Positions 43,580 to 58,490 of a stretch of 64,000 nucleotides of DNA are shown piece by piece. Numbering within the stretch: the first letter of the stretch is position 1; the number at the start of each line of letters is the position of its first letter. The notes under the pieces were generated by a model. The model was given only the letters and a program-made list of their open reading frames with translations. It was not told where the DNA came from and ran no database searches. Source of the stretch: Thermoproteota archaeon (GTDB taxonomy: Archaea > Korarchaeota > Korarchaeia > Korarchaeales > Korarchaeaceae); NCBI GenBank assembly GCA_027491735.1, contig JAOZGP010000004.1:1-64000 (forward strand). The letters are read 5' to 3'. The position numbers were made by a program, and so were the translations under genes.

Positions 43580-45019
43580 ATGGACAACGATGGAATTGAG
43601 GTCCCCAAGCTGATTTCATCTATAAGAAAAGTTGTAGGTAATGGTATCGTTAGGTCAACTATAAGAAAGCTTGGTCAGAAGAACCTTGAAAGGTTGCTGG
43701 GGATCTATGCTGGAGTTGATGAACCTGAGAGCATAAAGGAAAGAGTGCTCTCCTTTTTATTGTCTGAGGTTCTTCAGAAGGCAGCCTCCCGCTTCGGTGC
43801 TAGAGAGGAAGATCTCAAGCGCAGCCTTAAGGATCCCTACATGAGAAAGGGCATAGCCAACATACTTACGGGGATAGCTGAGTACGGGATAACAAGGCCT
43901 CAGAGGCTTCATGCTCCCTTCATGATAGTATGGGACTTCACCAAGCAATGCAATCTCAGGTGCAAGCACTGCTATGCCAACGCCACGAGATCGCCAGCTC
44001 CAGATGAACTCATCCTTGAAGAGAAATTCGAGGTCCTCAGGCAGCTTGATGAGGCTGGCGTTGCGGCTCTATCGTTCTCTGGAGGAGAACCACTCATAAA
44101 TAGGGATTTCTGGCCTGTAGCTAAGAAGGCAGCTGATCTCGGGATGTACGTCAGCATTGCCACCAATGGAACTCTGATAACTGAGGACGTCGCTAGGAGG
44201 CTCAGGGAGATAGGAGTCAGATATGTGGAGGTCAGCCTGGACTCTCCGATACCTGAAGAACACGACGAGTTCCGGGGGATAAGGGGGGCCTGGAACATGG
44301 CTGTAAGGGGGATAAAGAACGCCAAGGCTGTTGGGCTGGAGGTCGGAATAGCTACCACAGTCACGAAGATGAACTACGACAGGATGCCGGAGATGGTATC
44401 TCTGGCCAGGAAACTTGGGGTTGACAGGTTCATAGCCTTCAATTTCATCCCGACCGGCAGAGGAAGGGAGATCATCGATCTGGATCTCTCGCCTAAGGAG
44501 AGGACAGAGCTTCTTGAGTATTTTTACCAAGAGCTAGTTAAGGGAGGTTTACAGGTTTTCTCCACCGCTCCGTTCTATGCAGTGGTCTCAATGAAGCACC
44601 TCGATGATGGAGGTAAGCTCGCTCCAACACACTTCGCCGAGCTTCAAGTCCCTGAGAAGTACATGTCTGCAGGCTTTGCTCTAGCTGAGTTTCTCGGAGG
44701 ATGTGGTGCTGGGAGGATATACTGCTCGATAGAGCACAATGGAGACATACAGCCCTGCGTCTTCCTGCCGATAAAAGTGGGCAATGTTCTTGAAGATGGA
44801 TTCCTCAATGTATGGCAAAACAACGAGGTTCTCCTCAAGCTGAGGGATAGAGACAACTACGCCGGGAGCTTCTGCCCCTATCGATATATATGCGGCGGGT
44901 GTAGAGCCAGAGCATACGCATATTTTGGAGATATAACTGCTCTGGATCCGAGTTGTGAGTTCAACGAGGATTTGTGGGAGGAGATCATCCGAGAAGTCCA
45001 AAGAGTTGAGGCTCGATGA
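43580..45019 (+). CDS. Radical SAM/SPASM domain protein
   Basis: CNLRCKHC, GGEP, GCGAG, CGGCRARA. Confidence 0.9.
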   Translation: MDNDGIEVPKLISSIRKVVGNGIVRSTIRKLGQKNLERLLGIYAGVDEPESIKERVLSFLLSEVLQKAASRFGAREEDLKRSLKDPYMRKGIANILTGIAEYGITRPQRLHAPFMIVWDFTKQCNLRCKHCYANATRSPAPDELILEEKFEVLRQLDEAGVAALSFSGGEPLINRDFWPVAKKAADLGMYVSIATNGTLITEDVARRLREIGVRYVEVSLDSPIPEEHDEFRGIRGAWNMAVRGIKNAKAVGLEVGIATTVTKMNYDRMPEMVSLARKLGVDRFIAFNFIPTGRGREIIDLDLSPKERTELLEYFYQELVKGGLQVFSTAPFYAVVSMKHLDDGGKLAPTHFAELQVPEKYMSAGFALAEFLGGCGAGRIYCSIEHNGDIQPCVFLPIKVGNVLEDGFLNVWQNNEVLLKLRDRDNYAGSFCPYRYICGGCRARAYAYFGDITALDPSCEFNEDLWEEIIREVQRVEAR

Positions 45020-46404
45020 GGACTCTCCGGATCCTTCTCATATCCCCCCCAACGGATTCCGCTATAAAGAGGACGTTAGGTGTTTCAGGCCCTCCTTTAG
45101 GATTAGCTTACCTGGCCTCCGTCGTGAGGGAGGAGGGCCACGAGGTCCGCATAGCCGACTCCTTAACTGAGGATTACACGTTTGACGACCTGAGGAAGGT
45201 CATAAAAAGCTACTACCCAGACGTTGTGGGGATCACGGCCACGACCTCAATGATACCAGATGCCTACACTGCGGCCGCCATCACCAAGGAGATCGATCCG
45301 GAGATCACCGTGATCATGGGGGGTCCACATGTGACGTTTGTCCCTGACCTCACATTCCAGGAATGTCCTCACGTAGACGTGATAGTTCGAGGGGAGGGGG
45401 AGGAGGTTCTTAGGCATCTGCTCATGGTGCTTCAGGGCAGAAAGGATCTCAAGGAGGTCAGGGGAATAAGTTACCTGAAGGATGGTGTCGTCAGACATAA
45501 TCCTCCCATGCCCCTGATAGATGACCTGGACAGCATACCGATACCTGCCTACGATCTGCTGCCCATGGATAAGTACAGGGTTGGAAGACTCAGGTTCGGA
45601 GTTATAATGACGTCGAGAGGGTGTCCCTTTCAGTGCATATTTTGCTCATCCTCCCTCCTTTTCGGAAAGACATGGAGAGGACACAGCCCGAGGAGAGTTC
45701 TTCAGGAGATAAGGATCCTATATGACGACTTCAAGGCCAGAGAGATAGAGTTCCTGGACGACACTTTCACCCTCAACAGGAGGAGAGCCAGAGAGATAAC
45801 TGATAAGATCGCTGAGGAAGGGTTGGACATCTCCTGGTCCGCCTCCTCCAGGGTGAACACATTCGACGCGGAGACAGGAAGGTGCATGAGAAGAGCGGGA
45901 TGTCATACGGTGTACTTCGGAATAGAATCCGGATCTCAGAGAACCCTGGATTTCATAGGCAAGGGAATAACTCTGCAGCAGGCAATTGATGCGGTCAGGA
46001 CAGCTAAAAAAGTAAAGCTCAGCCCTCTGGGATCTTTCATAATAGGGTTTCCCCACGAGACCAAGGAGGACGTGAAGAGAACGATTTCCTTCTCTAAAAG
46101 GGTTGGAGTTGATATGGCCCAGTTCACAGTGGCCACTCCCTATCCAGGAACAAAGCTCTGGGACTTGGCTCTGAGGAAGAACCTCCTCCTCACGAGGAAC
46201 TGGAGAAAGTTCACCACACTGAATGTGGTGATGAGGAGCTTCCACCTCACTGCCAGACAGATACAGAGGTTTCTGGGATGGGCTTACATCTCATTTTACC
46301 TGAGGCCAAAGATAGTGTTGACGGACATCGTGAAAAACAAGGGATTCATACTGAAGAAGGCCTTGCCAGCGGCCATATCCTACCTTCTCCGAAGAAGCGA
46401 CTAG
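45016..46404 (+). CDS. B12-binding class B radical SAM protein
   Basis: PPLGLAYLA, GGPH, RGEGE, SRGCPFQCIFC, GIESG, PYPGT. Confidence 0.9.
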   Translation: MRTLRILLISPPTDSAIKRTLGVSGPPLGLAYLASVVREEGHEVRIADSLTEDYTFDDLRKVIKSYYPDVVGITATTSMIPDAYTAAAITKEIDPEITVIMGGPHVTFVPDLTFQECPHVDVIVRGEGEEVLRHLLMVLQGRKDLKEVRGISYLKDGVVRHNPPMPLIDDLDSIPIPAYDLLPMDKYRVGRLRFGVIMTSRGCPFQCIFCSSSLLFGKTWRGHSPRRVLQEIRILYDDFKAREIEFLDDTFTLNRRRAREITDKIAEEGLDISWSASSRVNTFDAETGRCMRRAGCHTVYFGIESGSQRTLDFIGKGITLQQAIDAVRTAKKVKLSPLGSFIIGFPHETKEDVKRTISFSKRVGVDMAQFTVATPYPGTKLWDLALRKNLLLTRNWRKFTTLNVVMRSFHLTARQIQRFLGWAYISFYLRPKIVLTDIVKNKGFILKKALPAAISYLLRRSD

Positions 46405-55900: not shown

Positions 55901-56270
55901 GGGGGTAACGAACTAGTTTCCATGAGCCGACTGGGTGGTTGTGGGAGCTGTCTGAGGTTATTGTCATGCCAGATAGCGTGAGCTGGCACTTGTAATTGTT
56001 CAGAGGTCGTAAGGCATGATTAAAGCTGCTGGAAGGCTTGGCAATTCTAGTTAACGAAAAAACGGACTGGAAGTAGGTCAACAAAGCCCATCGCGAGTTC
56101 GTTGGGAGAGTTTCCTGTGAACACCCTGAAACTCATCAGATAGATCCATCTAGGACGCACTCTCTCAAGGAAGGCGCCGAACTACATTCAAGTCCCGGTC
56201 TCGATCTGATGTGGAGCTTACTTCTCGTTATGAGAACTTGAAGTTGACGAGCCTCCTTCCGTGATGTCGC

Positions 56271-56296
56271 AAACTAGTATATTTATATACTGGTTT
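56271..56296. promoter_or_regulatory. Inverted-repeat operator overlapping a TATA box
   Basis: AAACTAGTATAT-TT-ATATACTGGTTT (11/12 matched arms) just upstream of the wHTH gene. Confidence 0.65.
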
Positions 56297-56309
56297 ATCT
56301 ATTAACTGG

Positions 56310-56714
56310 TTGATGCCGTTCCGTCCGGTCCACGGGAAGATACTCGATGTCCTGGCAGCCCACCCACAGGGGCTGTGCTTCAACAGCCTCAGCCAGAAAC
56401 TTAAGGGGGTAATCTCAAGAGTTGTCCTGCTCAAGGAGGTCAAGAGACTTGAGGACGCTGGTGTCATCGTTGTGGAGAGGGATCCAGGTCATAAGCAGAG
56501 GAAGATATTCAAGCTTGCATCATCGGTGAGAGATCTACTGTTATTTTTGGGTGAGGAGATCAGGTCTGGCGAGAGAAAAGCCTGTGATATAGCTGTTGAT
56601 CTGATAAACAGGTACGCCAGCATCAAGAGCGGTTTGAGGAACGAGTTCCTCAAGGAATATCTAAAGTACTCTGTCCTGACGAGAATTGAGGTTCTGATGG
56701 AGGAGGTGGCTTAG
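56310..56714 (+). CDS. Winged-helix (MarR/HxlR-like) regulator
   Basis: FNSL..LKG.ISR..L...VKRLEDAG.I. Confidence 0.75.
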   Translation: MMPFRPVHGKILDVLAAHPQGLCFNSLSQKLKGVISRVVLLKEVKRLEDAGVIVVERDPGHKQRKIFKLASSVRDLLLFLGEEIRSGERKACDIAVDLINRYASIKSGLRNEFLKEYLKYSVLTRIEVLMEEVA

Positions 56715-56975
56715 ATGTCGTCGGAGGTCTCCGTCGTGGTGGAGAGGGTAGACGATCAGGTGTTGGAGAAGCTCATTGGGTTAGCCATGTCCAGCCGGAG
56801 AATCAACATATACCTCAATGGAATTCCCTCTGAGATCATCAAGGCCCTCAGATCGGTGATAACCTCCAATACATCAAGATCAATCAGGTTATACTGCTCA
56901 ATCCCAGAGGATCCTCCTGGAGAGGTGATAAGGTTTCCTCCAGTGAGCCGGCAGGGAGAACGTTGCGAAGCATGA
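56715..56975 (+). CDS. Hypothetical protein
   Basis: RBS GGAGGTGG; operonic between the regulator and the radical SAM gene. Confidence 0.6.
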   Translation: MSSEVSVVVERVDDQVLEKLIGLAMSSRRINIYLNGIPSEIIKALRSVITSNTSRSIRLYCSIPEDPPGEVIRFPPVSRQGERCEA

Positions 56976-56987
56976 GGAGGTGATGTC

Positions 56988-58490
56988 ATGCATGACGTGG
57001 TTCTCTCAGCAGACAGGACGATGATGTCGAACCATCATGGGAAGGAGTTCCTCGGCTTCGTCGCAACAGGCCCCCCAGTGGGGATTCCGGAGTTCCTTTG
57101 GATGTGGGTAGCCGCTCCGAAGATGAAGGTCGATGATGAGGGAAGGGTTTGGCAGGCTCCTTACGGGATCAGGAAAATAGAGGCCGCCCTGTCGGACGCC
57201 GGTTTCGACGTCGCCACAATAGATCCGGATCATCTCCACAAGCACATACCAGGGGCGAAGGTTCTGGCGATAGGGCATCATGACTACTTCTCCCTCGGTC
57301 CCCCAAGCAGTGAGTGGTGGGTGTTGACCAGGAAGGAACCGGTGAACAGGAAGAGCTTCATCAAGTTCATGGAGAAGCCCGAGATAAGGAAGGGGAAGGA
57401 AAAAGGAATGAAGATAATAGTTGGAGGACCTGCAGCTTGGCAGTGGATCTGGGCTCCTGAGTACATAGACAGGTGGGGGATCGACTGTATAGTGGATGGG
57501 GAGGCCGATAAGGTTATAGTTGATCTCGTTGAGAAGGCCATGAACGACAAAGATCTCCCCCTTTACGTTCAGGTCGGTGTTGATGAGGTCCCCTCACTTG
57601 AGGAGATTCCTCTGATAAAGCACGCATCCGTAAATGGGCTTGTGGAGATAATGAGGGGATGCCCAAGGGGGTGTAAGTTCTGCTCGGTGACGCTCAGGCC
57701 TCTCAGATGCTACACGCTCGACATGATTGAGGAGGAGTTAAAGGTTAACGCCAGAGAGGGAGTCAAGGGATGCATCCTGCACTCAGAGGACGTCCTGCTC
57801 TATGGAGCAGATGGTGTGAAGCCGAGACCTGGACCCCTCCTTAAGCTCCACAGACTCGCCAAGAAGTACTCAAATCAGGTGGGGTGGAGTCACTTCAGCC
57901 TCGCGGCAGTCAAGTACGCTGAGGACAACTACGGACTGGTGAGCAGGCTTTCTGAGATGCTCAGGGAGGATCAGGATGACTTCATAGGGGTCGAGGTTGG
58001 AGTGGAAACTGGATCTCCAAGGCTCGCCAGGAGGATAATGCCTGCGAAGTCCCTTCCGTATCCAGCGGACCTATGGCCGGAGGTTGTCGTTGACGCCTTC
58101 GCCATAATGCACGATGCTCACGTGATACCGGCGGCAACCCTGATAATAGGCCTCCCGGAGGAGACTCCTGATGATATAATAAAGACCATAGAACTCGTTG
58201 AGGACCTTAAGGAATTTAGAAGTCTTATAGTTCCCATGTACTTCGTTCCTATGGGTGCTCTTAGGGGTAGGGACTGGTACAAGGTCCAACCGACAGATGA
58301 GCAGATGGATCTCATGAAGATCTGTCTCAGCCACGACCTATATTGGGTGGAGGGCATGATCGAGTGGTACTTCAGAAACTCAAATCCGCTCCTTAGGAAG
58401 GCGGTTAGGATGTTCATATCGTTCGTGAAGAAGGTTGCTAGATCGCATGGAATAGCTTTTGAGGAGGATATCAGAGTTGCTGTCAAGTGA
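56988..58490 (+). CDS. Radical SAM protein of the archaeal tetraether-lipid-modifying Grs/Gms-like family
   Basis: L.ADRT.MS, APYGIRKIEA, GGPAAWQ, RGCPRGCKFC, GVETGS, IVPMYFVP. Confidence 0.7.
   Translation: MHDVVLSADRTMMSNHHGKEFLGFVATGPPVGIPEFLWMWVAAPKMKVDDEGRVWQAPYGIRKIEAALSDAGFDVATIDPDHLHKHIPGAKVLAIGHHDYFSLGPPSSEWWVLTRKEPVNRKSFIKFMEKPEIRKGKEKGMKIIVGGPAAWQWIWAPEYIDRWGIDCIVDGEADKVIVDLVEKAMNDKDLPLYVQVGVDEVPSLEEIPLIKHASVNGLVEIMRGCPRGCKFCSVTLRPLRCYTLDMIEEELKVNAREGVKGCILHSEDVLLYGADGVKPRPGPLLKLHRLAKKYSNQVGWSHFSLAAVKYAEDNYGLVSRLSEMLREDQDDFIGVEVGVETGSPRLARRIMPAKSLPYPADLWPEVVVDAFAIMHDAHVIPAATLIIGLPEETPDDIIKTIELVEDLKEFRSLIVPMYFVPMGALRGRDWYKVQPTDEQMDLMKICLSHDLYWVEGMIEWYFRNSNPLLRKAVRMFISFVKKVARSHGIAFEEDIRVAVK

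Follow-up and report, generated by a model that had tools for sequence, protein, structure and literature searches.

We analyzed a korarchaeal locus that probably constitutes an autoregulated operon for making cyclopentane rings in tetraether membrane lipids. It occupies positions 56,271 to 58,490 of a stretch of 64,000 nucleotides (the window; contig JAOZGP010000004.1, positions 1 to 64,000, forward strand) from the Thermoproteota archaeon assembly GCA_027491735.1 (Korarchaeaceae). The assembly comprises 1,356,880 bp in 41 contigs and is 87.85% complete (G000 in our numbering, where G, C, and L denote genomes, contigs, and loci). The predicted operon encodes a MarR-like winged helix-turn-helix (wHTH) regulator (gene 1), a small Rossmann-like protein (gene 2), and a radical S-adenosylmethionine (SAM) enzyme of the GrsA type (gene 3, the target of the comparisons below). 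The number of rings in glycerol dialkyl glycerol tetraethers (GDGTs) is a main archaeal means of tuning membrane tightness and underlies widely used temperature proxies, and we know of no account of how cells control the ring synthases. The locus provides a concrete putative regulator-operator pair.

In Sulfolobus acidocaldarius, the B12-type radical SAM enzyme GrsA builds rings into GDGT-0 at position C-7. Gene 3 shares with this enzyme (saci_1585) the CX3CX2C core, an N-terminal part that may resemble a B12 domain and bears the APYG(L/I)RK motif, and a length of about 500 residues. Among Pfam profiles, it matches Radical_SAM (PF04055, E 1.8e-15) and, weakly, the B12-binding domain (PF02310, E 0.0067, 16.7 bits for a cut-off of 32.1), and none of the NCBIfam models reaches its cut-off (best TIGR04013, 76.7 bits for 251). 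Passages of PMC13459092 describe the N-terminus of the Grs superfamily as a Rossmann-like domain of the B12-binding type, and passages of the same paper and of PMC11186832 describe a single Fe-S cluster, without the cysteines of an auxiliary one. Gene 3 agrees with the single-cluster pattern: C225, C229, and C232 are invariant in the 38 aligned rows, no other cysteine is, and the next one, C446, is present in 30 of 38. The passages of PMC11186832 also report elongated hydrophobic C-terminal helices; in gene 3, Kyte-Doolittle windows of 19 residues over positions 431-497 have a maximum of 0.71. The initial annotation had named a motif, APY.(L/I)RK.E, of ring synthases and related enzymes, and we found it in the target (APYGIRKIE), in the GrsA-type open reading frame (ORF) of locus L068 (APYGLRKVE), and in the GrsB-type ORF of locus L075 (APYAIRKIE).

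These two reference ORFs, both from genome G083, were matched to S. acidocaldarius proteins through the data of PMC12107092. The RNA data of that study have SACI_RS07560 going from about 2900 to about 4 fragments per kilobase per million (FPKM), and SACI_RS01165 from about 57 to about 0.1. The better-scoring peptides of Q4J8I0 are 2-8 fold down in the grsA grsB double mutant and are back in the complemented strain (sd02), and Q4J8I0 peptides contain motifs of the target. The 14 distinct strings given for Q4J8I0 in 16 of its 24 table rows, compared by eye, all recur in a 505-aa ORF (L068/L071). Upstream of it lie an RpoM-like gene and then an 80-aa ORF, which is the gene order SACI_RS07570, SACI_RS07565, SACI_RS07560. 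For Q4JC22, a protein that is up about 2.5-fold upon complementation, each of the 14 peptides listed is present in the L075 ORF (528 aa).

Over residues 2-484, the target shares 54-55% identity with L068/L071 (E 2.7e-193); with the GrsB-type L075, it shares 33% (residues 1-478, E 4.9e-69). These E-values are computed per genome and are not those of BLASTP against nr. Identity to the other paralogue groups is 30-37%. A hot-spring survey (10.1101/2022.08.15.504015) applied thresholds of at least 70% coverage, at least 20% identity, and E<=1e-40 to both GrsA and GrsB of S. acidocaldarius, and the target falls within these limits for both peptide-bearing ORFs. We also considered the phylogeny that the initial annotation had suggested as a check, run with the GrsA- and GrsB-type ORFs. 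The maximum-likelihood tree had 38 rows: the target, 36 of the 49 submitted loci (in the other 13 the ORF ran past the fetched stretch), and the canonical B12 enzyme of the window as outgroup. GrsB and all other paralogues form one clade that excludes the target (ultrafast bootstrap 98, SH-aLRT 97). The target and seven relatives from its phylum form another (82/98), and 18 GrsA-type rows of Thermoprotei, including L068, a third (82/95). GrsB (saci_0240) and the paralogues GrsA' and GrsB', two groups set apart in a passage of a 2025 preprint (10.1101/2025.10.20.683597), share superfamily and motifs with gene 3 but belong to a separate clade.

Gene 3 had initially been labeled Grs/Gms-like, and only the first half of this label holds. 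According to passages of PMC11214058, Gms is an AhbD-like radical SAM enzyme with a SPASM/twitch domain and an N-terminal extension of about 100 residues. Gms and the product of gene 3 are both radical SAM enzymes, and Gms acts on GDGTs. None of the 21 NCBIfam families matched by gene 3 at E<=0.1 is AhbD, NirJ, or SPASM, and the window has a Gms-like gene elsewhere (see below). Judged from identity and tree, gene 3 is a GrsA-type ring synthase, whose regiochemistry would be that of its orthologue.

The family of gene 3 is tight, since its best 120 matches in the protein database are 57-68% identical to it. Named relatives come from Desulfurococcaceae, Hyperthermus, Staphylothermus, Thermofilaceae, Korarchaeota (Korarchaeum enzymes are 62% identical), and hot-spring Thaumarchaeota. 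Of 301 sampled genomes from the class around G043, 261 gave a match at E<=1e-20; many genomes carry two or three copies, and the best listed matches are 53-62% identical to the target. Within the phylum, a GrsA-type gene (at least 60% identity) is present in 10 of 43 genomes and absent from several that are 98-99% complete. A universal housekeeping enzyme, as the high conservation might have suggested, is ruled out by this patchy presence. No sequence match in the PDB relates gene 3 to Tes/GDGT-MAS, the best being RimO-type cores (E about 2e-6), and the ESM Atlas has only generic "radical SAM" clusters for it.

The three genes are preceded by a promoter with a conserved array of short boxes (Table 1). 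The initial annotation had proposed a three-gene operon of a wHTH gene, a small unknown gene, and a radical SAM gene, and in agreement with this the ORF list has three co-directional ORFs 3' of the promoter repeat; the TAG stop of the wHTH gene (56712-56714) directly abuts the ATG of gene 2 (56715).

Table 1. Features of the predicted operon and of its promoter, with positions in the window.
Feature	Position	Strand	Remarks
Inverted repeat AAACTAGTATAT-TT-ATATACTGGTTT	56271..56296		Arms 56271-56282 and 56285-56296, 11/12; box 1 and box 2 with flanks
Box 1 (putative), ACTAGT	56273..56278		-40 from the regulator ATG, upstream of the TATA box
TATA-like box TTTATATA	56283..56290	+	On the centre of the inverted repeat; read from sequence
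Box 2 (putative), ACTGGT	56289..56294		-24, overlaps the 3' end of the TATA box
Box 3 (putative), ACTGGT	56305..56310		-8, just 5' of the start codon; leaderless transcription start expected there
MarR-like winged-helix regulator, 133 aa	56313..56714	+	Start in the ORF list is TTG 56310; relatives begin MFRPVH
Shine-Dalgarno-like GGAGGTGG ahead of gene 2	56702..56709	+	Read from sequence
Small 86-aa protein, shortened member of an unannotated Rossmann-like family	56715..56975	+	No Pfam match; family profile E 1.6e-23
Shine-Dalgarno-like GGAGGTGA ahead of gene 3	56976..56983	+	Read from sequence
Predicted GrsA-type GDGT ring synthase, B12-domain-like radical SAM, 500 aa	56988..58490	+	Motif C225-x3-C229-x2-C232

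The repeat has 12-nt arms that are 92% complementary, separated by a 2-nt spacer, and it is the sole inverted repeat between positions 56100 and 56400. It is centred on TTTATATA, which is TATA-like by the archaeal consensus; a near-perfect 12-bp repeat over the TATA box had been noted initially and was recovered here. Related promoters have TTATA or TTTATA at the same place. The array comprises three ACYRGT hexamers, starting at 56273, 56289, and 56305, i.e., with a spacing of 16 bp. The whole assembly contains 618 such hexamers. The only pairs at exactly 16 bp are the two of this promoter (0.28 expected), and the triple occurs once (about 1e-4 expected). Among 17 promoters of the same regulator family, 14 have at least two boxes 16-17 bp apart. 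This set includes near-duplicates (L020/L022 and L048-L050) and corresponds to about nine distinct sequences. Three boxes are present in the window, L023, L032, and L033, and two in L018-L022, L031, and L045, as well as in L048-L050 (at -42/-26). Box 3 was found in all 11 aligned promoters at -8 (-6 to -11), and also in L045 and L043. Box 2 was found in 10 of the 11 at -24/-25 (-22 in L031; -27/-25 in L032/L033), and an equivalent of box 1 stands at the same position in L023, L032, and L033 and at -42 in L048-L050. If transcription starts at the usual distance after the TATA box, gene 1 would have no room for a leader. Autorepression by occlusion would fit the positions of these predicted sites, at the TATA edge and at the start. 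The genome search revealed no wider regulon: TATACYRGT occurs 10 times, as against about 42 expected, and no further sites in a cluster turned up.

The regulator belongs to a small family: a profile search of 5.8 billion protein clusters gave 33 proteins at E<=1e-5, of which the named ones, mostly korarchaeal, come from Korarchaeum, Methanodesulfokora, Brockarchaeota, and "Thermoproteota archaeon", and a word search with the single sequence matched only itself. Seven of 11 family members match the Pfam family MarR_2 at E<=0.01 (best 4.5e-8). The AlphaFold2 model of the regulator is confident (predicted local distance difference test, pLDDT, 90.3) and shows a winged helix followed by three helices. 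In the phylum, relatives of the regulator lie directly upstream of the small ORF and the grsA-type gene in the seven complete loci (L018-L024, 7/7). They also lie directly upstream of GrsB-like paralogues in L031-L033, where the regulator family and the boxes are present as in the window, but no small ORF precedes the paralogues. Overall, 18 of 43 phylum genomes have one strong copy of the regulator. In 13 of them, its coordinates place it directly upstream of a gene of the Grs superfamily; the remaining five are G041, G042, and G038, discussed next, G013, and G039, which was not fetched. In G041, G042, and G038, from another genus, the same family heads a UbiA prenyltransferase gene (L048:1850-3151, L049, and L050), with LPG_synthase_TM and GT4 genes alongside and, in L048, a radical SAM/SPASM gene nearby. 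Because the same family, with its boxes, heads a UbiA gene elsewhere, it may control several membrane-lipid operons. In L047:634-2589 (G013), the regulator homologue ends a 651-aa open frame of high GC content, probably a spurious extension, and is followed by a 608-aa methyltransferase-like ORF, with no Grs gene and with one box before the ATG.

The regulator has in common with MarR-family repressors a modeled winged helix with a putative helical dimerization part, palindromic sites (here putative) over its own promoter, and its place next to the lipid genes that it would regulate. It differs from them by forming a small family of its own, with weak Pfam scores and three short boxes spaced by 16 bp. 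The MarR_2-type regulators of other grsA loci align with it over the winged helix only (hhalign, 75.8%). The dedicated wHTH regulator with a putative operator, as proposed initially, is thus supported, on comparative grounds, by conserved synteny and by conserved boxes over the TATA box and start that are unique in the genome.

Gene 2 has no match in Pfam or NCBIfam. Homologous ORFs of 43-48 aa lie between regulator and grsA in L018-L024, where they overlap both neighbors. A homologue of 72-74 aa follows a MarR_2 regulator of another family in L003 and L004, and one of 79-143 aa lies directly before grsA, with stop and start overlapping, in L001, L005, L006, and L008-L011. Eight single-contig genomes (L060-L067) have a form of 116-140 aa ahead of grsA (hmmsearch E 3e-12 to 2.5e-3), which in five cases comes after a MarR_2-type gene. 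Counting the window, the family is upstream of grsA-type genes in 25 of 39 loci. Of the 43 genomes of the phylum, its profile matches exactly the 10 that carry a GrsA-type gene, each time between regulator and enzyme, and the other 33 gave no match. Seven of these ten had been used in building the profile, but not G029 and G034. Between L018 and L019, the small ORF differs at 25 nucleotides, 18 of them at third codon positions, with 15 synonymous and 7 non-synonymous codon changes. By this measure, the small ORF is under coding constraint. The unknown accessory protein of the initial annotation hence appears to represent a conserved, unannotated gene family tied to grsA-type genes.

This family extends beyond the loci above. 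A scan of 1.84 billion representatives with its hidden Markov model gave 87 clusters at E<=1e-3, all of them standalone proteins of 48-143 aa. Named members are "hypothetical proteins", and in Hyperthermus butylicus (pair ABM80093.1 / ABM80094.1) and Zestosphaera their accessions are adjacent to that of a GrsA-type protein. Since members occur in cultured organisms (Hyperthermus butylicus, Thermogladius), the role of the family is open to study in existing ring-less expression hosts. The long form is predicted to adopt a five-strand Rossmann-like fold, of which the protein of the window retains two beta-alpha units and the Korarchaeum-like versions one. The best structural match of the long form is ST0493, a hypothetical protein of Sulfolobus tokodaii (PDB 2rbg; Foldseek template-modeling (TM) score 0.61, E 6e-3; VIA Z 9.5, root-mean-square deviation 3.2, 107 aligned residues), but the two are only 10-15% identical (profile E 0.57), and the scores of universal stress protein and CARF domains come close to it. 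Profile matches of the small protein in the PDB are designed Rossmann proteins only, and the ESM Atlas has no usable match for it. Q4J8H9, a neighbor candidate in S. acidocaldarius, is represented by one peptide, which does not resemble the family. Gene 3 is the third gene, after a MarR-like regulator and a Rossmann-like protein, whereas Sulfolobaceae-like grsA loci have no such regulator and, instead of the Rossmann-like family, an unrelated ORF upstream of grsA. This conserved ORF of 78-89 aa (starting MKISNVE or MKVTE) was found about 50 nt upstream of the grsA-type genes of L051-L059 and L068-L070. It corresponds to SACI_RS07565 ("hypothetical protein"), which has about 4300 FPKM in PMC12107092 (sd01).

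In the model that we favor, the product of gene 3, as a GrsA orthologue, would form rings in GDGTs made via Tes. The regulator most likely binds the three ACYRGT boxes as a dimer or an array of dimers, and once bound would keep TBP/TFB or the polymerase off the promoter and so silence its own operon. A signal, possibly a membrane-derived or amphiphilic ligand, would lift the repression. The small protein, translationally coupled to grsA in many Thermoprotei and Korarchaeia, would most likely act together with GrsA, as a subunit or helper. An essential catalytic role is unlikely, because the family is absent where GrsA is known to work and because of its shrinking length.

Several observations weigh against this model. 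The relations between the target, the Thermoprotei GrsA-type, and the paralogue clades at the base of the tree were not resolved, and the outgroup branch is very long, so that the designation of gene 3 as a GrsA orthologue depends on its identity values and its place outside the paralogue clade. In the mutant, several Q4J8I0 peptides of low score fail to drop. The regulator scores 16.2 bits with MarR_2, under the cut-off of 27, and its best PDB folds, all of the MarR family, have a TM score of only about 0.5 (E about 3e-4). Its family is, given the UbiA operon in another genus, not strictly Grs-specific, and three of the 17 promoters (L024, L043, and L047) have one box only. The small family was not found in L002, L007, and the 12 Sulfolobaceae-like loci examined (12/12), i.e., in 14 of 39 loci, and its length varies from 43 to 143 aa. 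Finally, CobS (PF02654), CbiB/CobD (PF03186), and a PduO-type adenosyltransferase (PF01923) were not found in this 87.85%-complete genome, which has two B12-type radical SAM enzymes; all three are present in the S. acidocaldarius genome used as a control.

The variable length of the small ORF and its absence from 14 of 39 loci would also fit a different role, in which it is not a partner of GrsA but a coupling ORF that hands ribosomes on to grsA after the regulator gene, or else, in Korarchaeia, a remnant undergoing decay. The short, doubly overlapping versions of the Korarchaeum-like loci and a fold that is a generic Rossmann-like unit with no clear relative point in the same direction. We nevertheless find this unlikely: the amino-acid sequence is kept across genera, synonymous changes outnumber non-synonymous ones between L018 and L019, the long form folds confidently (pLDDT 88.3), and the small ORF stays with grsA in loci without any regulator gene (L001, L005-L011).

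Other readings concern the enzyme and the direction of control. The target could be a Grs-superfamily enzyme with another tetraether modification (another ring position, or other C-C or C-H chemistry), the small protein specifying the difference. The passages of the 2025 preprint cited above report that homologous radical SAM lipid enzymes of the B12 type evolved into methylases and a desaturase, and separate the GrsA' and GrsB' groups. The basal branching of our tree would allow this reading, and the Sulfolobaceae-like loci lack the small partner seen here. This reading is made quite improbable by the near-full-length identity to the S. acidocaldarius-type GrsA ORF, well above that to the other paralogue groups, and by the uniformity of the GrsA-type group across the 301-genome class sample. 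There is equally little chance, in our view, that the wHTH protein activates the operon or plays a dual role, or that another factor occupies the boxes. Box 1 does stand just upstream of the TATA box, a place from which archaeal activators can recruit TBP/TFB. However, boxes 2 and 3, the best conserved, overlap the 3' edge of the TATA box and the start, a classical position for occlusion. Its relatives in the MarR family are mostly ligand-released repressors, and the boxes travel with the regulator family across different downstream genes.

A bolder version of the favored model is possible, but we consider it somewhat unlikely. Outside Sulfolobaceae, GrsA would be a two-protein enzyme with a required Rossmann-like subunit (which might, e.g., load the cofactor, deliver electrons, or dock the enzyme to the membrane). 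As a lipid-sensing switch, the Korarchaeal MarR-like family would set ring number and control other membrane-remodeling operons (grsA-type, grsB-like, and UbiA/glycosyltransferase) through ACYRGT arrays. The enzyme adds a member to a known family, and it is the operon context that is new to us: a family-specific regulator with its conserved array of boxes, and a partner gene that is conserved and lacks annotation. Our search of titles and abstracts gave no study of grs gene regulation, a search that did not include the small partner protein or cover bioRxiv supplements. The nearest published remark known to us, in passages of 10.1101/2025.10.20.683597, is on MarR-type factors (bldR2, TK0169-related) beside GDGT methylase genes only.

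The rest of the genome provides further lipid genes. The assembly has 25 radical SAM matches, including Tes, Elp3, and a MiaB-like enzyme. Because the genome encodes Tes (G000:C21:16937-18658, minus strand; NF045702, 739 bits for a cut-off of 450), the substrate of GrsA can be made here. A MiaB-like methylthiotransferase (C21:19781-21145) adjoins Tes. The Gms-like gene of the window (43580-45019) encodes an AhbD-like SPASM enzyme of 479 aa, with an N-terminal extension of about 114 aa and a match to TIGR04545 over residues 115-462 (275 bits). Its stop is overlapped by the start of a canonical B12 radical SAM gene (45016-46404, 462 aa), which has BchE/HpnJ-like scores under the cut-offs. The gms-gmm architecture and pairing are described in passages of PMC11214058, and the pair at 43580-46404 matches this description. 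The organism probably makes bridged and methylated tetraethers too, as far as can be predicted from its genes. A further pair of lipid-type radical SAM genes is present in G002 (L029:62-3042), where a canonical B12 enzyme gene (469 aa) is followed at a distance of 3 nt by the start of a Grs paralogue of 522 aa, 35% identical to the target.

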